The notes beneath the pieces are model-generated. The model searched no databases, was not told where the DNA came from, and saw only the letters and a program-made list of their open reading frames with translations. 64,000 nt of DNA. Origin: Candidatus Latescibacterota bacterium (GTDB lineage Bacteria > Latescibacterota > UBA2968 > GCA-2709665). How positions within the stretch are numbered: the stretch's first letter is position 1; the number at the start of each line of letters is the position of its first letter. Location: NCBI GenBank assembly GCA_965237675.1, contig OZ250150.1:384001-448000 (forward strand), written 5' to 3'. The translations under genes were made by a program, and so were the position numbers. Below, piece after piece: positions 29,083 through 42,343 of this stretch.

Positions 29083-29126
29083 TTGACAAAGTTGATATCA
29101 TCCATAAATTGCTGTCATTATGACAG
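29083..29126 (+). promoter_or_regulatory. sigma70 promoter plus palindromic GntR/FadR-type operator
   Basis: TTGACA (29083) ... TAAATT (29105); perfect palindrome CTGTCAT-T-ATGACAG at 29112-29126. Confidence 0.65.
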
Positions 29127-29146
29127 AAGTGAAGCGGTCCGTCAAT

Positions 29147-29884
29147 ATGGACGAATTGAAACCGGTCTCCAGGGAGACGCTTGCAGACCAGGTTGTGTTT
29201 ATCTTAAAACGCTTTATTCTGGCCGAGAGACTCAATAAAGGCGATAGGCTGCCACCCGAACGGACCCTGGCAGCCAATCTGGGCGTCAGCTATCGGGTCA
29301 TTCGCGAGGCTCTGGCCGTTCTTGTCGGTGAAGGCGCCGTTACAAGGGAGCAGGGGCGCGGTACATTTGTCAGAACCGTGGACACCAACCCTCTCGAAAA
29401 CGGCCATCTCGATGTTTTCCCATCCATCTCCAACCGCACGGACATTTATGCGCTGCGCATTTCCGTCGAGATGGCGGCGGTCGGCATAGCGGCCGAAAAT
29501 GCGACGGAAGAAGACCTGGCGCATCTTAAGGCAATTGCCGACTTCAAGGCGCTGGACCTCGACCAGGGTATGATGGCGTATGAAATTCGCTTTCATCGCG
29601 CCCTGTTGCGGGCAACGCATAACCCGGTGCTGCAACGATGTGCAGACCTCATTACCGAGGCGTTGCGCCTGAAAGCCTACGATATAGACAGCCCTGTTTT
29701 TGGCGAGCGCCTGTCTGCTCGAGATTCCGGAAGGATTGCCGTAGCCGAGCATCGGGAAATTGTCAACGCGCTTTATGCACGGGATGGCGAGAAGGCGACT
29801 GCGATTATGTATAATCAGATGGCCAGCGTCCGCGCCCTGATCCTTGCTCTGGAGGTAAAAAATGATCACGCTGGCCATCAATGA
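29147..29884 (+). CDS. FadR/GntR family transcriptional regulator
   Basis: GDRLPPERTLA..LGVS..VIREAL...GRGTFV HTH; FCD motifs FHRAL..ATHNP, EHREI. Confidence 0.92.
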   Translation: MDELKPVSRETLADQVVFILKRFILAERLNKGDRLPPERTLAANLGVSYRVIREALAVLVGEGAVTREQGRGTFVRTVDTNPLENGHLDVFPSISNRTDIYALRISVEMAAVGIAAENATEEDLAHLKAIADFKALDLDQGMMAYEIRFHRALLRATHNPVLQRCADLITEALRLKAYDIDSPVFGERLSARDSGRIAVAEHREIVNALYARDGEKATAIMYNQMASVRALILALEVKNDHAGHQ

Positions 29885-29925
29885 AAGCCGAACATCAGAA
29901 ATTACCCGTAGACAACGGACAACCA

Positions 29926-30120
29926 CTGGTGTTCTGTCCATGAAATAGATTGCCGAAATTCGGCCGATCAGAAGCAGCAAAAACAGCTCTCAGCCGTCAG
30001 CTTGAACCAAAAACCCAATCAGTTGACATCAGCGCCGTGAAGAGACGAGACCAGAACGGGCGCAGCGAGACGGGATGAATCGGCGGATGAATAGTAACAT
30101 ATTTCTGGGACGGGACACTG
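29926..30120. mobile_element. MITE (family B, IS630-like ends), copy 1
   Basis: Ends CTGGTGTTCTGTCCATGAAATA / TATTTCTGGGACGGGACACTG; shares AAATTCGGCCG and GCGAGACGGGATGAATCGGCGG with 37511-37678. Confidence 0.65.
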
Positions 30121-30219
30121 CGAGGAGGTGATAGACCGAAAGGATTGAGGGATGTTTTGCAAAAGGGCACCGGGGAGTCCGGATGTCGCGTGTGACATCG
30201 GAACAAAAGGAGGTTGTGT

Positions 30220-30936
30220 ATGCGAAACGTTGTGCTGGTATGTATTGCAGCGGCAATTCTGCTGTTCTCGGCAGGAGCGGTCTATGCGGGCGATGTGGGC
30301 GGCAGTTGGGGGATCGGGACGTTCCTGGATTATAACCGGTCGATCTTCAAGCTGAAAGACTGGTACGAAACCGGCCGTGGCGAGGTCGGGGTCGTTTTCA
30401 CCTACGTGATGAGCCAGAGGACCAGCGTGGAGATGGAGTTTCACCGGTCCAAATTCGACAACGGAAAGCTGGAAGACCGCCCGTTTACGTGGCCGGTGGA
30501 CGGGAAAGCGTATATGTCCCCCAATGCGGTGAGCGAGATGCGGATCAGCAGCTTTCTGGTCAACGCGGTCGTCCGGCGCGGGGGCATGGGTATCCTGGCT
30601 AAAGAGAACTATTCCACGTATGTAACCGTCGGCGCCGGGTTTTACGACTACAGGACGGATGTACGCGGACTGATCTTTCCCGGCCAGCGCGAGGCGCCAA
30701 TAAACAAGGAGCTTGTGATAGATCCTTTCAGCGATTCGCGCACGGCGCTGGGGGCGAACGTGGGCGTGGGTGTCGAGGCGTTTGTGTTCGACAACATTTC
30801 GCTGGATGTACGTGCCCGATACAATCTCCTGCTCGGCGAGTTGAGGCCTATGGAAGCGTGGAATCTCGACGGCCAGACCTTTCCGATGCAGTTCTTGAAT
30901 GCGCGCGGCGGCATCCGGTTTTATTTCAAGAAATAG
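30220..30936 (+). CDS. small outer-membrane beta-barrel protein
   Basis: Signal peptide (AVYA-G), alternating amphipathic strands, C-terminal GGIRFYF; AGGAGG RBS. Confidence 0.8.
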   Translation: MRNVVLVCIAAAILLFSAGAVYAGDVGGSWGIGTFLDYNRSIFKLKDWYETGRGEVGVVFTYVMSQRTSVEMEFHRSKFDNGKLEDRPFTWPVDGKAYMSPNAVSEMRISSFLVNAVVRRGGMGILAKENYSTYVTVGAGFYDYRTDVRGLIFPGQREAPINKELVIDPFSDSRTALGANVGVGVEAFVFDNISLDVRARYNLLLGELRPMEAWNLDGQTFPMQFLNARGGIRFYFKK

Positions 30937-31025
30937 CAATTCAGTCATAACCGGTAATTGCCAGGCGGTTGGATCTCTGTTGGAGAATCTCGCAAGCGAA
31001 ATAAATGCTGCGTAAAGGAGGAACC

Positions 31026-34000
31026 ATGAGAAGGCTCAGGTTTATGACGGGCGCTGTGGCCGTGTTGTGTTCCGTGTTTTTTGTCACCAGCGCGGTAACG
31101 GCCGCGACAACCGGCAAAATCGTCGGCCGGGTGACCGACGAGCAAGGAGAGCCCCTGCCAGGGGCCAGCGTCTCAATTGAAGAAACGCGGCTGGGGGGAA
31201 CGACCGATGCGGATGGATTCTACGTCATCGTTTCCGTAACTCCCGGACAGTACAAGTTGACAGCTTCAATGGTGGGTTATCACTCGGTGGTCAAAGAGCA
31301 AGTGGCCGTGCGGGTGGACTTCACCACGACCGTAGACTTCCAGCTTCGTGAATCCGAACTGGAACTCGAGGAGATGGTGGTCGTGGCGGAAAGGCCGGCG
31401 GTCGACCCCGACAAGACGGACAGCCGTTACGTCGTAACCGCCGAGGAGATCCAGCGAACGCCCATTCTAAGGAACGTCACCGAGGTTCTGGAATTGGAGC
31501 CGGGTTATGCCGTTGACGGCAGCGGCGCCATCCGGGGTTGGGTTGCCAGCCACAACGTGGTCTACGTCGACGGCGTCCCCGTAGCGGGCAGGGACGGACG
31601 CGGCATCGGAGGGGGATGGGGCGACGGCGGCGAGAGGCAGTGGTACGGCGTCAACCTCAAGGCGGTGCAGGAGGTCTCGGTAATCACGGGCGGCATGAAC
31701 GCCGAGTACGGCAACGCGCAGGCGGGCGTCATCCAGATTGTAACGCGCGACGGCGGCGCCGACTACCACGGCGAGGGGGAGTACCGTCTCACCCCTGGCG
31801 GCAAGAAGCACTGGGGGGCGGACGTCTACGAGGCGCCGGAGTTGCGGGGGAACGCGAAGTGGAACGATCCCTCTTGGACTTCCGAGGTGGACCCCGAGAC
31901 CGGAAATCTGGTGCACCATCGAACCAATTATACAGACTGGAGAGGCCACTACCTCGACGGCTATCTGAGCGGCCCGCTATTCGGGCAGGCTTCGTTCTTC
32001 GCCAGCGCCCGTCACCTTCGCGACGCCGCCGTTCTCCCCGGTCCGTGGCGCACCCGGCCGCCGAACATCCGGACCACGGCGAAGCTGACGGTCCCCGCCG
32101 GGCTGAACATGAAACTGCGGATCGGATGGATGTACGACTGGTCGGAGGGAATCAACAACGGACGGCTGTCCAGGTACAGCTTCCCGAACATCCTCCGAGG
32201 ACCCGGGCGGGATCTCTTCATTCCCGAGGGGTCGGTCGCCGGGACGGAATCCCAGTTGGACAACATGGTCTACGGCGTTCTCACCCATACCGTCAACCCC
32301 AGGACGTTCTACGAGGTGAGCGTGTCGCGCTACCGCAGCAGGACCGACACAAGCGGCGTGGGGAATGCAACCACGGCCGTCAGGACGGACAGCGACGGGT
32401 TTTTCTACATCGGCCGAGACGACGTTTGGGCCTTCAAGGTCGGTGAACAGAACCGATACAGCGTGAAGGCCGATCTGTCCAGCCAAGTGAATCGCGAACA
32501 CTTCGCCAAGACCGGCTTCGAGTTCATGACGTTCAGCAACTGGTGGACGTGGACGGGCATGACGCCCGGCGACGCCAAGCGGGATATCCGTTACATCGGA
32601 CAGCCCGAACCGGGCGAGCCCGTGACGCCCAGGCAGTTCAGTGTGTACGTCCAGGACAAGATGGAATTTGAGGGGTTGATCGTCAACGTCGGCCTGCGCT
32701 ACGACCGGATGTGGGGTCAGGACGTACAGTTGCTGCCGACGTTCACGTCGGGATGGTACAACGCGATGGATACCTTCATCCAGGCGCCGACCGGGCCCAT
32801 GCGGACGATCTCCGGCTGGAGCCCCAGGATGGGAATCTCGCACCCCATTACGTCCAGGTCCAGCTTGCATTTCTTTTACGGCCGATTCATGATGCTCCCC
32901 TCCTTCCGGCAACAGTTCGGCAGCCACTGGGAAACGGCTTCGGGGCCGTCGGGCGTTCCGGGCGTGCCGTGGAGTCATTTCAACGCGAAAGACGAAAGCT
33001 ACGGCGCGAACGCTATCAGCCCGGTTTGGGACCACGGTCACCCTACGAACAGTTTTGAGGTAGGCACCGACTGGAACTTCGTGAGCGACTATGTGGCCTC
33101 TCTGGCCGCCTTTTACAAGAGCGGCCACCTGCAGAGCACCGGTCTCTGGCACGACGCCGTCGATCCCGTGACCGGGAGAACAGGCGCCATCGGTGGCACG
33201 TACGGTTCCGAGCGCACGGAGGACGTCAAGGGCTTCGAGTTCAGCATGAGGAAGGGATTCAGCAACCTTTTCTCATTCCGGGCCGCAATGAACCTGGAAT
33301 GGCTGGAAGCCATCCACTGGCTTGGAGATCTGGAGTCTGTCGCGAGTGTCCTCGTCTATCCCGATGCCAGCTTCATCGCCAGCGGAAAGTACCACAAGGA
33401 GTGGCGTGCCGCGGGCGGCCGCAGGGAACCCGTTCCGCTGACAGCCGACGAGATCCGGGAAATCTCCGCCAAGGCCGAAGAGAACCTGCAAAAGGTCAGG
33501 GAAAATCATGAGTTCTTCCTCACCAGCGGTGGCGCCGGCCCGATTCAACCGGCGTGGGAAGCCCCGGGCCTGACGGCCGAAGCCAAGGAATATCTGCAGG
33601 GCATCTGGTTCCAGAAGTTGTGGTTCAGCACCGGGAACATCTTCTCACGCGGGCGCCGCAGCCAGGGCAGTCTGCAGATGTTCTTCTCCTCCCCGCTTGA
33701 CTTTGGCCCGGGCGCCAGGATGGCCGGCACGACGCTCTTTGGCGGCATCAACGCCAACCTGATCTACCGGATCTACACGGGCGGCAAGTTCAATTACATC
33801 AAGCTTACCGGAAACAACACATCGGCGAGGGGTCCGTTGCACACGGAAACCGACTTGAACTTACAGAAGCACTTCCGCTTCGGGAGCTTCAACGCCGATG
33901 TGTTCGTCGAAGTGTTCAACCTGTTCAACCAGCAGGACGCGGCCCGCGTTACCAATACGGACTACATGTGGTGGGGGCTCCAGCAGCCCAGGCCCGACGA

Positions 34001-34094
34001 TGCGAACTACCTGAATTACGGGGACTTATCTGACCGCTCGCGCTACATCGGCAATCCCCGGATTACCCACGTGGGGATCAGGTTGAATTTCTGA
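31026..34094 (+). CDS. TonB-dependent receptor with N-terminal carboxypeptidase-regulatory-like domain
   Basis: Signal peptide; GKIVGRVTD..GEPLPGASV; plug motifs VYVDG and GGMNAEYGNAQAGVI; C-terminal GIRLNF. Confidence 0.92.
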   Translation: MRRLRFMTGAVAVLCSVFFVTSAVTAATTGKIVGRVTDEQGEPLPGASVSIEETRLGGTTDADGFYVIVSVTPGQYKLTASMVGYHSVVKEQVAVRVDFTTTVDFQLRESELELEEMVVVAERPAVDPDKTDSRYVVTAEEIQRTPILRNVTEVLELEPGYAVDGSGAIRGWVASHNVVYVDGVPVAGRDGRGIGGGWGDGGERQWYGVNLKAVQEVSVITGGMNAEYGNAQAGVIQIVTRDGGADYHGEGEYRLTPGGKKHWGADVYEAPELRGNAKWNDPSWTSEVDPETGNLVHHRTNYTDWRGHYLDGYLSGPLFGQASFFASARHLRDAAVLPGPWRTRPPNIRTTAKLTVPAGLNMKLRIGWMYDWSEGINNGRLSRYSFPNILRGPGRDLFIPEGSVAGTESQLDNMVYGVLTHTVNPRTFYEVSVSRYRSRTDTSGVGNATTAVRTDSDGFFYIGRDDVWAFKVGEQNRYSVKADLSSQVNREHFAKTGFEFMTFSNWWTWTGMTPGDAKRDIRYIGQPEPGEPVTPRQFSVYVQDKMEFEGLIVNVGLRYDRMWGQDVQLLPTFTSGWYNAMDTFIQAPTGPMRTISGWSPRMGISHPITSRSSLHFFYGRFMMLPSFRQQFGSHWETASGPSGVPGVPWSHFNAKDESYGANAISPVWDHGHPTNSFEVGTDWNFVSDYVASLAAFYKSGHLQSTGLWHDAVDPVTGRTGAIGGTYGSERTEDVKGFEFSMRKGFSNLFSFRAAMNLEWLEAIHWLGDLESVASVLVYPDASFIASGKYHKEWRAAGGRREPVPLTADEIREISAKAEENLQKVRENHEFFLTSGGAGPIQPAWEAPGLTAEAKEYLQGIWFQKLWFSTGNIFSRGRRSQGSLQMFFSSPLDFGPGARMAGTTLFGGINANLIYRIYTGGKFNYIKLTGNNTSARGPLHTETDLNLQKHFRFGSFNADVFVEVFNLFNQQDAARVTNTDYMWWGLQQPRPDDANYLNYGDLSDRSRYIGNPRITHVGIRLNF

Positions 34095-34105
34095 CGCGGT
34101 TGAAC

Positions 34106-34123
34106 CCCTCCGGTAACGGAGGG
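34106..34123 (+). other. intercistronic GNRA hairpin without U-tract
   Basis: CCCTCCG-GTAA-CGGAGGG right after the TBDR stop. Confidence 0.55.
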
Positions 34124-34157
34124 CCCAACCCTGTTGGACATCTTTGAGGAGATCTAG

Positions 34158-36437
34158 GTGATGAAAAAGATTATGGTATGCGGAATCGCATTCTTGGTTC
34201 TCGCCCAGGTGTTTGGCGGCGCCGGGCACGCGGAACTCCGCGTTCAGTCCCGCGCGAAGGTGTGGGATATCTACTGGAATTCAGGCACCCAGGGCGTGCG
34301 CGCCGCAACGCCCATGAGTTGGTACCGACCCGTCGGCCTGGCCTATCCCGGGACCTTCTGGGTGCAGTTCCCGCAGGAATTCGTGGACTACTGGGGCACC
34401 CGACGCTGGGGGGTCCGGTCCGAGTGGGTCGTCTATTACAACGAATTGTGCGGCACGATGCCCGGCTGGAACCAGTTCATCGCGACAAGAGTCGGAGGCG
34501 AATACCACGTCTCCGAATCCAAGGCGACTCTGGAATCCGAAGACGTGGTCCCGATGGCCTACGATCCGTCCCAGGGGCCTGAGATGAATATCGGCTACCG
34601 GAAGGTATCGCCCCTGGGTCCGGTCATGGCCAACTGGTGGTCCGGGCAGCCCGCGCCGGGGCCCGCTTCGCCTGTGGAGATCCACAACTACCGGTACAGC
34701 GAATACATGGAGCCCGACAAAGACAGTTTTCCGGAGAGCACTATCATCAGCAAATGGACCACGCGCAACGGCATCACCGTCACCAAGAAGGCATACGCGT
34801 GGAGCTTCCCCGACTTCGACGATTTCGAGATTCTGGAATACACGTTCGAAAATACCGGAGATTCCGACGGCGACGGCGTGGCCGATCTCGGCGGCGGGGG
34901 GTTGCAACTGAACGATACGTTCCTGATCTTCTCTACCCGCTTCTATACCTCCCAGTGCGGCCAGGCCCACTATGTCGGGGATTCGTTCTTCAGGTACACG
35001 CTGCCGTTAGCTTTGGACGATTGGTACAAATATACGGAGGCGGCCAATTTCGACGGTCCAGGCGCGGCGACGGGGCTCAAGATGTGGTACGCCTATGACG
35101 GGGAGAACCCGGACCTGCCAGGCGAGGACATCGGCAAGCCCTACAGTCAGAACCGCGCCAACCAGAGTTGGCACAGCTGCTGTCTCAAACAAACAAAAGT
35201 GGAGGGCCAGTTGGGGGCCTTCCAGTACGTGGGCGCCGCACCGCTCGCCTACACGCCGGGATCGGTCAACGATCCGTCATCCTTCACCTACGACACCGGA
35301 GGCGATGCGAGCTTCGTGGCGCCACGGGTCGCGGACCAGCCCCACACCGTAAAGTGGTGGGACTACCGGGACCGGACCGATTTCTCGGAACCCGGTTCGG
35401 AGAACAAGAGTTCCGAGCAGATCTATACCGAATTGACGAGTGCGTCGCCCTTCATCCAGGACAATCCCACGGTGGTGGACGGCGTTACGGCTTCGTTCGC
35501 CTATGGACCGTACGACCTGGCCCCCGGGGACAAGGTGAGAATCGTCTACGCCCTGGTGGCGGCCGCCCCGGTGGAGGAGAACATGTGGGGTTGGGCCAAG
35601 CAGGGCAGACAGGAGGACATGTACACGGATAAGGCGATGAACAACCTCCTCAAACACCACAAGGCCGCCGCGGACGCCTTCAGGTGGGGCTACGATCTGC
35701 CCGATCCCCCGCCGGACGTGAAGACTGAGGTAGCCGCTTCGGTCGACGGATTCAACCTGATCAAGTGGACCGACGACGGGGACGACGCGACCGACCCGGA
35801 CTACACCGGCGCAGAGGCCCAGGATATCGTGGGCTATCGAATCTACCGCTCGGACTTCAAGATTGACGACTGGAAGCTCATGGCCGATATTCCGTTGAAG
35901 GATCCGGAGTATTATAGCGGTGGCACCTACCAGGTTGAAGACAGGAAATCCGTGGCGGGTTTTGAATACACCTACCGCGTGGCGGCCTACGACTCGGGCC
36001 ACGACGACTGGAACGGAACGGGGATGGCCATCTCCTCCATGGAGGGCGGGAACAGTTCGCCCGAGCAATGGGTGGGAGGCGTCATGACCAGTGTTCCTTT
36101 CGTACCGGCCAATGCGGCGGCGGACCAGATGCAGCGGGACGTGATCATCGTTCCCAATCCACACAAAGTCGACGGAGCCCACAACTATCCGTCTGCGGGG
36201 CTGATACGGTTTACCAACGTCCCGCAGCGTTGCACGATCAGGATCTACACCGTGGCGGGGGAGCTTGCCGCTGTGATCGAACACAACGATCCCAGCAGGG
36301 GCGAGGCCGGATGGGACCAGATACCCCGCTCGCGCGGCGGGAACGTGCCCTCCGGCGTCTATTACTGGATCGTCGAATCCCAGATGCCGGGAAGCCAGGG
36401 CCAGACACAGTCGGGCACGTTGATGATCATCAAATAG
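34158..36437 (+). CDS. secreted protein with Fn3-like domain and C-terminal T9SS-type sorting domain (CTD)
   Basis: Signal peptide (AGHA-E); PPPD.V, GYRIYRS, YTYRVAAYD; CTD VIIVPNP...IRFTNVP..CTIRIYTVAGE...WD...SGVYYW...MIIK from 36141. Confidence 0.8.
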   Translation: MMKKIMVCGIAFLVLAQVFGGAGHAELRVQSRAKVWDIYWNSGTQGVRAATPMSWYRPVGLAYPGTFWVQFPQEFVDYWGTRRWGVRSEWVVYYNELCGTMPGWNQFIATRVGGEYHVSESKATLESEDVVPMAYDPSQGPEMNIGYRKVSPLGPVMANWWSGQPAPGPASPVEIHNYRYSEYMEPDKDSFPESTIISKWTTRNGITVTKKAYAWSFPDFDDFEILEYTFENTGDSDGDGVADLGGGGLQLNDTFLIFSTRFYTSQCGQAHYVGDSFFRYTLPLALDDWYKYTEAANFDGPGAATGLKMWYAYDGENPDLPGEDIGKPYSQNRANQSWHSCCLKQTKVEGQLGAFQYVGAAPLAYTPGSVNDPSSFTYDTGGDASFVAPRVADQPHTVKWWDYRDRTDFSEPGSENKSSEQIYTELTSASPFIQDNPTVVDGVTASFAYGPYDLAPGDKVRIVYALVAAAPVEENMWGWAKQGRQEDMYTDKAMNNLLKHHKAAADAFRWGYDLPDPPPDVKTEVAASVDGFNLIKWTDDGDDATDPDYTGAEAQDIVGYRIYRSDFKIDDWKLMADIPLKDPEYYSGGTYQVEDRKSVAGFEYTYRVAAYDSGHDDWNGTGMAISSMEGGNSSPEQWVGGVMTSVPFVPANAAADQMQRDVIIVPNPHKVDGAHNYPSAGLIRFTNVPQRCTIRIYTVAGELAAVIEHNDPSRGEAGWDQIPRSRGGNVPSGVYYWIVESQMPGSQGQTQSGTLMIIK

Positions 36438-36496
36438 GGGCAGATCTCTATTTCTGCACGGCTCAGGTCCATACTGAAACTTAAGGAGAGTACACG

Positions 36497-37450
36497 ATGA
36501 AACGAACGTTGTGGATCGGACTGACAGCGGTGGTGATCTGCGCCCTGCTCTATCCACGGGGAGCAGATGCCCAGGATCAGAGGCGGCTCTCGCGGATGGT
36601 CCTTCCCGTACTGAAGATCGATCATGGAGCGCGTATGGCCGGTATGGGAGGTTCGTTTGTGGCCGTATCGGACAATATCGATGCCATCTTTTCAAATGTG
36701 GCCGGGTTGACGCATATCGAGGGGTCCGCGTTCACGCTCGGATACACCCGATGGCTGATGAACGACCACATTCTGAACGGCGGCCTGGCCTTCAAGACCG
36801 GGTACGGGGTTGTGGGTTTGAGCGTGGTCACATTCAGACCCAAGGGGTTCGAGGAGACAACCATTTTTCAGCCCACGGGCACGGGCCGGGAACCGGATAT
36901 GGGCGATCTGTCCCTGGGCGTGGCCTACGCGAAAAAGCTGACGGACAAACTTTCGGTGGGCTCCTTGTTCCGCTGGACCCAGCAGACACTCGATACCGAC
37001 CGTCTGACGGCGTACGACGTAAACGTATCGACGTTTTTCTACACCGGCTTCAAAAGTCTGCGTCTCGGAATGACGTTTGAAAACATGGGCAAGGACGTCA
37101 AGGTGGTTGAAGATGTGAGAAAGATGCCGGTTTCCTTCGGTACGGCGGTCGCAATGGAAATTGTCGGCGCCAAGGGCGACCCGTCGTACCTGACGTTTAC
37201 TGCTGAGAATCACTACGCCACGGATTTCGCCGACCCTCAGTACCGGCTGGGCGGAGAATTCTGGCTCCAGAACAGCTTTGCCCTGCGGGCGGGATACAAG
37301 GTCAACTATGACGAAGAGTCATGGACGCTCGGGGCCGGTTTGAAATTCACGATGGCGGACGGCCGTGTGGTGCAGGCGGATATCGCCTATGGCGATTTCG
37401 GCGCGTACCTGAATGCCCCATTGAGGTTCACGCTGAGCGGGGCGTTCTGA
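36497..37450 (+). CDS. PorV/PorQ-family outer-membrane beta-barrel (FadL-like)
   Basis: Signal peptide; LKIDHGARMAGMGGSFVAVSDNIDAIFSNVAGL (PorV-type GAR..GMG...NPAGL); terminal Phe. Confidence 0.82.
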   Translation: MKRTLWIGLTAVVICALLYPRGADAQDQRRLSRMVLPVLKIDHGARMAGMGGSFVAVSDNIDAIFSNVAGLTHIEGSAFTLGYTRWLMNDHILNGGLAFKTGYGVVGLSVVTFRPKGFEETTIFQPTGTGREPDMGDLSLGVAYAKKLTDKLSVGSLFRWTQQTLDTDRLTAYDVNVSTFFYTGFKSLRLGMTFENMGKDVKVVEDVRKMPVSFGTAVAMEIVGAKGDPSYLTFTAENHYATDFADPQYRLGGEFWLQNSFALRAGYKVNYDEESWTLGAGLKFTMADGRVVQADIAYGDFGAYLNAPLRFTLSGAF

Positions 37451-37473
37451 GTTTTCCGGAACAATCGTGGTTA

Positions 37474-37511
37474 AAGGAAATGGCGGTCCTCAGGGATTGC
37501 CATTTCTTTTT
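37474..37511 (+). terminator. rho-independent terminator of the TBDR-CTD-PorV operon
   Basis: AAGGAAATGGCGGTCC-TCA-GGGATTGCCATTTCTTTTT hairpin with T-tract. Confidence 0.75.
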
Positions 37512-37678
37512 AGTGTTCTTTCCCAGAAATAGGTTGCCTAAATTCGGCCGTCGAGTCGCCCGGCTCGCAAGGCGCCAGAGCGCAGGCGACCTGCGTAAGT
37601 TCGGCGAGCGAAGGCAACGCCGCGAGACGGGATGAATCGGCGGGAGAATGGTTAGATATTTTTGGGACAGGACATTAG
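37511..37678. mobile_element. MITE (family B, IS630-like ends), copy 2
   Basis: Imperfect TIRs TAGTGTTCTTTCCCAGAAATA / TATTTTTGGGACAGGACATTAG; homologous to 29926-30120. Confidence 0.7.
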
Positions 37679-37744
37679 GTGGTGGATTCCATATATTCTA
37701 CCACTATCCGGATCTCGTGACCAACGCGCCTATCGGGGGCTGTC

Positions 37745-40330: not shown

Positions 40331-42343
40331 GTGGAAGGCTCTCAAGCCCGAAGCCTGCGGAATCGGGCCGACCCACAACAACGCGCGTCTTCGGAGAATC
40401 TTCCTGCGTCTTCACAGGACGGTCTGACGTTGCGGGCTTTCCTGATCGGGCTCGTCCTTTGCGTGTTCCTTGGTGTCGCGCTGACGCACAACCGTATGGT
40501 CGTCCAGGGGCCCTTCATGGGCAGTTACTTTATGGACCGGGGCGTGCTGTTCGTTTTCTTCGTCCTTGTTCTGGCCGTAAACCCTCTGGCGGCGGCCCTG
40601 AAGCGCCGATATGCACTGGGGCGGGGCGAGTTGTTGGCCATCTATGTCATGTTGCTGTTTCTGATGCCGGCATGGAAAATGACCAAGGCCCTGCTGGGCT
40701 TTATGACGGGCGTGACCTACTATGCCTCGCCGGAAATGCGGCACCTGGAAGCGGTGTTGCCCTACGCCCTTCCCTGGCTGTCGATACTGGATACGCATGC
40801 GGTAAGGGGGCTGTACGACGGTCTTCCCGCCGGCGACCCGGTGCCCTGGTTGACGTGGGTGGTTCCCATGTGGAGCTGGGGGTCGTTCCTGGTGGTGTTG
40901 TACGTCGTTCTCGTCTGCCTGGCGGTTCTGATGAGAAAGCAGTGGGAGGAACACGAACGATTTGCGTTTCCCATCATGCAGGTGCCGCTGGAGATGAGCG
41001 AGGCGGGCGCGCGAAAGGTGGGACCCCTGTTCCGCAACAGGATGATGTGGGGGGGATTCGCGGTTCCATTTCTGATCGGATTGTTGAACGGGCTTCAGAG
41101 GTACTACTACTCCCTGCCCCGCATTCCGCTGAGAACGGTGATCTGGATCTTCCGCCGCGCGATTCCCTTGCATATCGGCCTTCATTTTGCGATCCTTGGG
41201 TACTCGTATTTCGTGAATACGGACGTGAGTCTGAGCATCTGGCTGTTCAACGTGATCGCCAAGTGCGTCAGCGGAATTCTGGCCATCGTGGGGGCGGAAA
41301 CATACGGCGTTTCCGGGGTGGTGGGCCGGCACAGTTCCCAGGGATCGGAATTCCTGGCGATGATGGGCATGGGCTACATGCTCGCCCTTGCAGGGTACAG
41401 TCTGTGGATCGCGAGGGGGCACCTGCGGGAAGTGTGGGCCAGGGCGATGGGCCGCCCGTCACGCCTGGACGATTCGGACGAGGTTATCCCCTACCGGTCG
41501 GCCGTGGCGGGCATCGTTGCGGGGACCCTGTATCTGGGATGCTGGCTCTACCAGGCAGGCATCTCTCCCCATCTCGTCCTGCTGCTGGGCTTTTTCTGTT
41601 TTGTCGTCTTTCTGGTTCTTGCCCGAATCGTGAGCGAGACCGGTTATTCGGTTACCTACGCCCCGCTGAACCCCTCGGAGTTCGTGGTGTGTGCGGTCGG
41701 TTCCGCGGCGTTCAGCCCAACTGGCCTCACGACCCTCGGCGTCAGTTTCGCCTGGACGATGACCCGGCTGAATACGCTGATGCCCCGGGCCTCGGGCGCG
41801 CTGAGACTCGCACGGGAGATCGGACGCAAGCGGGGGCTGGTCCTGGCGATGGGCGCCGCGCTGGCGGCGGGCCTTGTCGCGGCGAGCTATACGACGCTTC
41901 AACTGGGATACGAGCACGGCGGCCGCAACCTGGATTATTGGTTCAGGGACGTAAACGATTGCGCGCTGCCGTTCGACGAATACATCGGACGCCGGTTGCT
42001 CTCACCGACTCCGATCTTCTACCCCGGATTTCTTTACACGGCGCTGGGGGCCGCCGTTGTCGTCGTTCTGATGTCGCTCCGGTCGCGGCTCCCGTGGTGG
42101 CCGCTGCACCCGGTGGCGCTGCCGGTGAGTACGATCGCGTATACGCACAATTACTTCTTCAGCGTATTTCTCGCCTGGGGAATCAAGGCGCTCGTGCTGC
42201 GGTATGGAGGGGCCAACCTGTACAGGATGACCAGACCGTTTTTCATGGGAATCATCCTGGGTGAGGCGGTCTGCCTGGGGATGTGGATCGTCATCGACAG
42301 CGTAACCGGGAAAGTGGGCGGGATCTGGATCCTGCAACCCTGA
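40331..42343 (+). CDS. polytopic inner-membrane protein, DUF6785/DUF6784-type putative transporter
   Basis: Many TM helices; GLTLRAFLIG, RKQWEEHERFAFP, RIVSETG, WWPLHPV, PFFMGIILGE. Confidence 0.75.
   Translation: MEGSQARSLRNRADPQQRASSENLPASSQDGLTLRAFLIGLVLCVFLGVALTHNRMVVQGPFMGSYFMDRGVLFVFFVLVLAVNPLAAALKRRYALGRGELLAIYVMLLFLMPAWKMTKALLGFMTGVTYYASPEMRHLEAVLPYALPWLSILDTHAVRGLYDGLPAGDPVPWLTWVVPMWSWGSFLVVLYVVLVCLAVLMRKQWEEHERFAFPIMQVPLEMSEAGARKVGPLFRNRMMWGGFAVPFLIGLLNGLQRYYYSLPRIPLRTVIWIFRRAIPLHIGLHFAILGYSYFVNTDVSLSIWLFNVIAKCVSGILAIVGAETYGVSGVVGRHSSQGSEFLAMMGMGYMLALAGYSLWIARGHLREVWARAMGRPSRLDDSDEVIPYRSAVAGIVAGTLYLGCWLYQAGISPHLVLLLGFFCFVVFLVLARIVSETGYSVTYAPLNPSEFVVCAVGSAAFSPTGLTTLGVSFAWTMTRLNTLMPRASGALRLAREIGRKRGLVLAMGAALAAGLVAASYTTLQLGYEHGGRNLDYWFRDVNDCALPFDEYIGRRLLSPTPIFYPGFLYTALGAAVVVVLMSLRSRLPWWPLHPVALPVSTIAYTHNYFFSVFLAWGIKALVLRYGGANLYRMTRPFFMGIILGEAVCLGMWIVIDSVTGKVGGIWILQP

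Follow-up and report, generated by a model that had tools for sequence, protein, structure and literature searches.

A recurrent TonB receptor cassette of Latescibacterota and related phyla that apparently joins T9SS-type anchoring to import

How might a TonB-dependent receptor capture large substrates where no SusD partner is encoded beside it? A run of genes at positions 29083–37511 of a 64,000-nucleotide stretch of a Candidatus Latescibacterota genome (assembly GCA_965237675.1, contig OZ250150.1, positions 384,001–448,000 of the forward strand; hereafter the window) raises this question. The run encodes a small outer-membrane barrel (B), a TonB-dependent receptor (T), a protein of 759 amino acids (X) and a barrel of the PorV/PorQ family (V). 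An initial annotation had proposed that X carries a type IX secretion system (T9SS) C-terminal domain (CTD) and is held at the cell surface by its own PorV paralogue, as lid or processing partner of the receptor. T, X and V recur together in three phyla; the cassette is real and widespread, apparently has not been described before, and would probably couple anchoring of the T9SS type with import through TonB.

All five open reading frames (ORFs) of the run, a gntR-type gene followed by B, T, X and V, are confirmed on the + strand, the last four in one series ending at a terminator-like hairpin. T occupies 31005..34094 (likely start ATG 31026), X 34158..36437 and V 36497..37450, with B upstream at 30214..30936 (likely start ATG 30220), and a ribosome-binding site precedes each of these four genes. 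Counted from the likely starts, the B–T, T–X and X–V spacers measure only 89, 63 and 59 nucleotides (nt), leaving no room for a SusD gene inside the locus. The SusD fold is helical; X is predicted to have a beta fold and gives no SusD Pfam hit, in agreement with the absence of SusD reported initially. The compact, co-oriented B-T-X-V run described in the same annotation is likewise in place, and it closes with an intrinsic-terminator-like hairpin of 17 pairs followed by a U tract (37473..37510, +, from a sequence scan); terminator-like sites are at chance number (8 versus 8.0), and the stem of this one is the longest by far.

The T-X-V arrangement occurs six times in the source genome, five times with B, and its recurrence is far beyond chance. 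X belongs to an unannotated family with 325 cluster representatives at E ≤1e-30, and an X profile matches 117/121 Latescibacterota genomes at E 1e-10 (partial matches counted), 53/61 genomes of the KSB1 phylum at E 1e-40 and 29/41 genomes of a third phylum at E 1e-60. DNA was fetched around the best-scoring X matches only, and kin among these loci makes them non-independent; in this sample T lies immediately upstream of 243 of 270 distinct X genes from three phyla (91/93, 99/117, 52/59 and 1/1 by group) and V immediately downstream of 220 (90/93, 91/117, 39/59 and 0/1), some of the missing neighbours being explained by contig ends. The nearest related loci, at 83–89% identity, are from Candidatus Latescibacterota, and a metagenome scan with one distant homologue returned two loci only. 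A survey of synteny had been suggested as a check, and the T-X-V order proves to be kept across the three phyla as well as in the six copies of the source genome. Outside Latescibacterota the orders T-X-V-T-X, T-V-X-X and V-T-X and arrays of X are common, so the closer pairing is that of T with X, and one V can serve a locus; in 18 of the fetched loci two T-X units accompany a single V within the stretch of DNA.

Individual loci depart from the common arrangement. Arrays of up to six X genes with no T or V between them occur in a KSB1 genome (L098, G122:C427; L097), and it is suggested that these are spare or exchangeable partners of one receptor. At L063, B-T-X is followed directly by a DUF6785 gene and V is absent; V may be supplied there from another locus. 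Broken cassettes include one with a split T (L058) and one with a transposase-like ORF between X and V (L069), and at L084 T and X are each in two ORFs.

The N terminus of X reads as a Sec signal, with a basic-hydrophobic-AxA pattern and no lipobox, which agrees with the cleavable, non-lipoprotein signal first assigned to this 759-residue protein; a lipobox-like match is present in only 2/119 start-defined X rows. A structure model built from 34 sequences (pLDDT 82, pTM 0.84) predicts a beta-supersandwich at residues ~25–514, an FN3-like domain at ~520–640 and a CTD-like tail at 653–759. In VIA-align comparisons residues 25–514 resemble cellodextrin phosphorylase 5nz7 (Z 16.8, root-mean-square deviation (rmsd) 3.9, 267 aligned), glucoamylase (Z 16.6) and GH116 (Z 15.8), and more weakly galactose mutarotases/aldose epimerases (Z 12.0), a GH174 fucanase (Z 12.2) and lyase domains; Foldseek agrees weakly on this assignment. 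The best matches are to the N-terminal beta-sandwich of GH94/GH15/GH116/GH65 enzymes, in which catalysis lies in a helical barrel. In the model of X the matched part comprises the beta-supersandwich and linker helices, and the helical catalytic barrel is missing. Conserved positions across 245 sequences are mostly Gly, Pro and aromatic residues; acidic residues of the sandwich are kept at positions 193 (97%), 227 (92%) and 221 (87%), and no invariant acidic or His residue and no invariant catalytic pair was found in the N-terminal domain of these sequences. Searches returned no Pfam catalytic family among 53 X homologues and no PDB sequence match for X. A shared fold by itself says nothing of the function of X; from the model we infer a non-catalytic binder.

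The tail of X resembles a CTD in fold. Residues 653–759 superpose on the CTD of PorZ (5m11, residues 686–776) with Z 10.8, rmsd 2.6 and 86 aligned residues (VIA-align), and a PorZ model aligns X residues 652–750 at E 5e-5. The T9SS assignment made initially therefore holds for the fold, but not for CTD sequence models, which hit the tail only below cut-off; several homologues match FlgD_ig weakly. The last residue is R or K in 230 of 245 sequences. With a profile of the X tail, the six cassette X proteins, all members of its training set, score 64–110 bits, whereas no other ORF in this genome exceeds 24. The same type of tail is carried by 20 larger proteins (831–1447 amino acids), picked from tail-dominated hits outside the training set, and these have T in 17/20 loci, V in 17/20 and both in 16/20, two of the misses being contig ends. 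Judged by sequence, the X tail is a cassette-specific class of its own.

V scores 143 bits against the PorV/PorQ family model NF033709 (cut-off 90), and its profile matches the PorV structure 6h3i at E 1e-28 and FadL/TodX only weakly (E 2e-4); Pfam and NCBIfam searches at E 0.1 listed no PorP/SprF family for it. The equivalog models NF033710 and NF033711 give 56 versus 250 and 46 versus 220 bits, so V is neither a PorV nor a PorQ orthologue. The genome holds 10 PorV-family genes over cut-off among 14 matches. In a quick tree of 53 barrels, supported by SH-aLRT values without bootstrap and with long branches among the non-cassette members, 46 cassette V proteins split from the seven other family members of the genome (SH-aLRT 88). 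V is thus a family member in a cassette-specific group, as the proposal of a dedicated PorV paralogue implied, but it is not the PorV equivalog and there is not strictly one V per receptor.

T has 1022 amino acids from its likely ATG, close to the first estimate of ~1020, and carries PF13620, PF13715 and PF07715 over cut-off, corresponding to an N-terminal CarboxypepD_reg-like extension and a plug. Its barrel is modelled as that of a TonB-dependent receptor with long extracellular loops. Against the SusC/RagA model TIGR04056 it reaches 61 bits (cut-off 368), over the N-terminal part only, which places T outside that family. Scored with a profile trained on cassette T, in a genome with 18 Plug matches in total, the six cassette receptors stand together and well separated from the remaining ones (865–1128 versus at most 193 bits). 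Each of these six receptors is encoded in a cassette, and so is every one of the six full-length X proteins.

The source genome (5.6 Mb, 99.9% complete, 8% contamination) encodes parts of a T9SS. A search for sprA, advised at the outset, located SprA over cut-off (TIGR04189, 616 bits versus 200; C1:3799310-3805624), and SprA is also present in 41/41 sampled genomes of the KSB1 phylum and 41/41 of the third phylum. A single C25 PorU-like peptidase of 1919 amino acids with its own CTD (5586878-5592637) scores below the PorU cut-offs, and there are 15 matches to the type A CTD model TIGR04183 and 11 to TonB_C. The SusD family PF07980 has no match in the genome, with a positive control and with other SusD-like Pfam families outside this genome-wide search; in the phylum sample one weak match each occurs in 26/121 genomes, and none in the 17 other genomes of the source's family.

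We think it rather probable that SprA exports X, that V retains X on the surface through an uncleaved tail, and that X is the substrate-capturing partner of T. Sec would carry X across the inner membrane and the SprA translocon across the outer one, directed by the C-terminal immunoglobulin (Ig)-like tail of X. V, and not the general PorV, would then receive the tail and keep it uncleaved, as precedent and weak covariation suggest, so that X would remain at the surface without a lipid anchor. Gene order, fold and the lack of SusD point to the beta-supersandwich as a non-catalytic substrate-capturing partner of the cognate T, which X would reach over its FN3-like spacer, and T would import the substrate with TonB energy. 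A further arrangement, in which T, V and X form one complex and V docks sideways on T and places X over the receptor mouth by means of the cassette-specific tail, is one that we propose tentatively and with considerable doubt.

Contacts among the three proteins were analysed by ridge-regularised covariation over 205 triplets (about 111 effective sequences), which recovered intra-chain beta-hairpin pairs; a first run with weak regularisation gave noise and was discarded. Eight of the top 30 X–V pairs join the X tail to predicted extracellular loops or the N-terminal tail of V, whereas 30 shuffles within phyla gave 1.3 on average and never more than 3, and neighbour swaps 0–2, the V loop set having been drawn from the strand pattern after the first covariation result was known. 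Examples are Y736 with L87, M88 and D90 (top 100), T754–K116 and M756–E132. Where two X proteins share one V (n=18), the likeness of their tails exceeds what would be expected from the N-terminal domains (mean percentile 0.83; 0.69 for FN3). It is plausible, on precedent and this weak covariation, that V holds X by its tail. The leading T–V pairs, T H613–V T179, T E556–V K151 and T T616–V K151 (T residues counted from 31005), cluster at the predicted periplasmic ends of both barrels, with a signal that comes from KSB1 and is absent within Latescibacterota. Controls for these pairs are mixed: the third-ranked score lies above 25/25 shuffles and the top score is exceeded in 3/25, much of the signal survives neighbour partner swaps, and the T–V box was drawn after the fact. 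T–V also has the largest partial distance correlation in mirror trees (0.54–0.64), and we treat T–V contact as a lead only. A complex prediction of T (312–1029) with V (36–317) scored 0.05 against a mark of 0.32, with controls not folded, and counts neither for nor against such a contact. For contact between X and T, gene order is the sole support. The suggested role of X as a lid or partner thus gains a plausible tail–V anchoring but no X–T signal.

Several results weigh against the proposed mechanism. T–X covariation does not rise above shuffles (top score 10.5 versus 11.0 and 12.9), and the whole X tail is not enriched among X–V pairs (12/30 versus a shuffle mean of 12.5). Loci with two V genes reach a tail percentile of 0.67 (n=7), so the shared-V effect is modestly higher, and the loci are kin. 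Domain-resolved mirror trees of 85 non-redundant triplets were rejected as evidence because subsets disagree: the tail follows V over T in all rows, the reverse holds in KSB1 plus the third phylum, and no tail–V versus tail–T difference appears in Latescibacterota. The X tail reaches 16.7 bits against the type B model PF13585 (cut-off 27), X is absent from the 15 TIGR04183 matches, and it has no PF18962 hit. X stands in tandem arrays or without an adjoining T in 27/270 cases, some at contig ends, catalytic proteins such as aldose epimerases (Z 12) and GH174 (Z 12.2) share its fold, and the neighbouring enzymes give no clear substrate. None of GldL, GldM and GldN was found over cut-off in the genome, yet no control genome was over cut-off either, and GldK/PorK was outside the search. 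GldN and GldL had no hits (GldL 0/31), and the one weak GldM hit, below cut-off, lies opposite a long ORF and was dismissed as chance. SprA with a PorU-like protein and no GldL/M/N found possibly indicates a T9SS lacking the Gld motor.

The catalytic relatives of the X fold raise the alternative that X is a V-anchored surface enzyme, an epimerase, lyase or hydrolase that processes substrate for T, as surface glycosidases do in utilisomes, and forms no lid. Galactose mutarotases, the GH174 fucanase and lyase domains share the sandwich, and the conservation of acidic residues at 193, 227 and 221 also speaks for it; the best fold matches, however, are to enzymes whose catalytic helical barrel X lacks, the conserved positions are Gly, Pro and aromatic with no invariant catalytic pair, and no homologue falls in a Pfam catalytic family. 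We regard this alternative as unlikely. A somewhat smaller chance attaches to the view that SprA does not export X at all, and that X is periplasmic or handled by V alone, with an FlgD-like Ig domain for a tail and V acting as a FadL-like channel or Slam-like exporter. The sub-threshold CTD scores, the weak FlgD_ig matches, the FadL/TodX hit of the V profile and the missing T9SS motor (controls silent) would fit, but V is far nearer to PorV, the tail matches the PorZ CTD fold, the V residues that covary with the tail lie in loops predicted to be extracellular, and SprA is encoded here and in 82/82 genomes of the two other X-bearing phyla.

The module might also serve mainly for something other than import, with T, energised by TonB, assisting V in drawing X out of SprA in a T9SS that has no Gld motor, or with T and X acting in sensing or adhesion. 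The missing GldL/M/N (again with silent controls), the T–V distance correlation and the weak covariation cluster at the periplasmic ends would suit an energising role. T nevertheless has an ordinary plug and barrel, the cassettes stand amid catabolic genes and DUF6785 membrane proteins (45/80 loci), and at least 15 type A CTD proteins of the genome lack such a cassette, so export needs no T in general; we find this account improbable. Export of X by SprA, retention by V and substrate capture for T remains the reading that we prefer.

The cassette works like SusC/SusD and like T9SS cargo–shuttle pairs and is a member of neither. With SusC/SusD (RagA/RagB) and the utilisomes of Bacteroidota it shares a receptor with a CarboxypepD_reg-like extension followed by the gene of a secreted partner, the T–X adjacency and many paralogous copies per genome. 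It differs in that X lacks a lipobox and is modelled as a beta protein, T falls far below the SusC/RagA cut-off, a third gene encodes the barrel V, and PF07980 is absent from the source genome and the 17 others of its family. The type B cargos paired with PorP/SprF (SprB–SprF, PG1035–PorP) are alike in having the shuttle directly downstream, surface retention and some shared shuttles, and unlike in the family of the shuttle, which for V is PorV/PorQ, and in the tail, which lies below the PF13585 cut-off. A type B cargo reportedly needs a shuttle encoded directly downstream, some cargos sharing one (PMC12618676), and remains anchored on it (PMC9143113); known type B cargos are adhesin-like, and the word TonB is absent from the main text of PMC12618676. 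PorZ–PorQ and PorU–PorV also place an uncleaved CTD on a PorV-family barrel, and the X tail matches the PorZ CTD. These are single housekeeping components, whereas the pair in the cassette exists in several copies linked to a receptor gene, with a V that is neither equivalog. According to PMC10202324, the CTD of PorZ stays on PorQ, and CTDs may be shielded from cleavage by their cognate PorV-like barrels.

Two further systems offer looser analogies. According to PMC12611786, BamG, a FadL-family 14-stranded barrel beside BamA, anchors an extracellular canopy over BamA, and among the Fibrobacterota–Chlorobiota–Bacteroidota (FCB) phyla only Chlorobiota lack SusCD and SprA; that the T9SS may occur in other FCB phyla is raised in PMC11285876. 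The BamG–BamH–BamM canopy on the beta-barrel assembly machinery of Flavobacterium is a structural analogy for V and X over T, differing in its lipoproteins and in the task of assembling proteins; the match of V to BamG is no better than E 0.08.

Slam/type XI secretion system loci combine a TonB-dependent receptor, a co-receptor or hemophore and a dedicated exporter. T-X-V follows the same three-gene plan, in which a receptor goes with a secreted helper and a barrel of its own, with a different barrel and signal and with the Slam loci in Proteobacteria; Pfam and NCBIfam scans of the cassette proteins gave no Slam/DUF560 hit. A literature search, mostly at abstract level and with subscription journals largely outside it, found no description of a T-X-V cassette, and the portions available of PMC12635249 and PMC5317091 do not mention it.

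B, GntR, DUF6785 and GWxTD proteins are lineage-level additions to the T-X-V core. B is a real barrel, as first annotated (PF13505, 36.9 bits, cut-off 28.7), but it is not core, being present in 59/80 mostly Latescibacterota loci and in 4/82 further loci, many of them cut close upstream of T. The GntR/FadR-type regulator gene (29120..29884, +, with helix-turn-helix and FCD domain matches) had been counted as part of the cassette; it accompanies only 5/80 related loci and was rejected as a core part. A distance of 335 nt separates it from B, and this interval contains a dispersed intergenic repeat (29923..30119, approximate limits, by blastn), for which a 29885-30200 query gave 153 blastn hits across the genome. 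A second dispersed intergenic repeat flanks the cassette at 37515-37680, with 110 blastn hits. Upstream of gntR lies a sigma-70-like promoter consensus (29083..29110, +, a 10/12 match on consensus only), one of 9 such sites found versus 3.2 expected by chance. The T–X spacer holds a G+C-rich hairpin read from the sequence (34100..34131, +, approximate limits), possibly an element of mRNA processing or stabilisation that perhaps sets the T:X ratio.

A carbohydrate or a derivative of a sugar is the likeliest substrate. Neighbouring genes encode a Gfo/Idh/MocA oxidoreductase, a xylose-isomerase-like barrel, a GH32/GH130-like propeller, a pyridoxal phosphate (PLP) enzyme, PhyH dioxygenases and DUF6785 proteins, which suggest sugars or sugar derivatives and name none. 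A DUF6785/DUF6784 membrane protein at window 40331-42343, 2.9 kb downstream of V and with 23 copies in the genome, is a candidate inner-membrane permease partner of the cassette; DUF6785 occurs in 45/80 loci and GWxTD-type proteins in 22–34/80, depending on the query. Two of the six cassettes have genes for TPR and GWxTD proteins directly 3′ of V (L002:1810-4572, L009:2192-4594), in a genome with about 20–30 GWxTD-related genes, and by analogy with PorE for PorP these proteins could be periplasmic partners of V. Upstream of two cassettes (L003:2-3643, L004:13759-17933) lie a large protein of FN3/He_PIG repeats with a dockerin at its end and, after it, a small protein whose tail is of the type A CTD/FlgD kind; the two are possibly a dockerin–anchor pair for surface display.

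Traces of the cassette also appear in public RNA data. The 14 listed metatranscriptome runs contain a fifth to a third of sampled words, and RNA contigs from four runs of four studies cover the cassette at mostly 90–99% identity. Among the pieces listed, contigs bridge B–T in two runs and X–V in one, and one contig runs past the T stop, only 26 letters into X. These contigs carry no information on strand, level, ends or single transcripts and may include DNA admixture, which makes them weak evidence of expression; a higher summed RNA depth over 29170-37713 was not used as evidence.

Latescibacterota, KSB1 and related uncultured phyla have many TonB receptors, and in a lineage with no recognisable SusD the cassette is a candidate route for the capture of large substrates. 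In these uncultured relatives of Bacteroides, T-X-V probably does what SusC/SusD does in Bacteroides. If so, T9SS sorting would be linked to nutrient import, the cassette would represent a new tail–shuttle class, and it would provide a marker for utilisation loci. Were the three proteins to form one complex, it would amount to an independent second answer to the task of the SusD lid, assembled from components of the T9SS. Delivery by SprA might then proceed without a Gld motor, and Latescibacterota, KSB1 and related phyla would take up macromolecules selectively mainly through the cassette.

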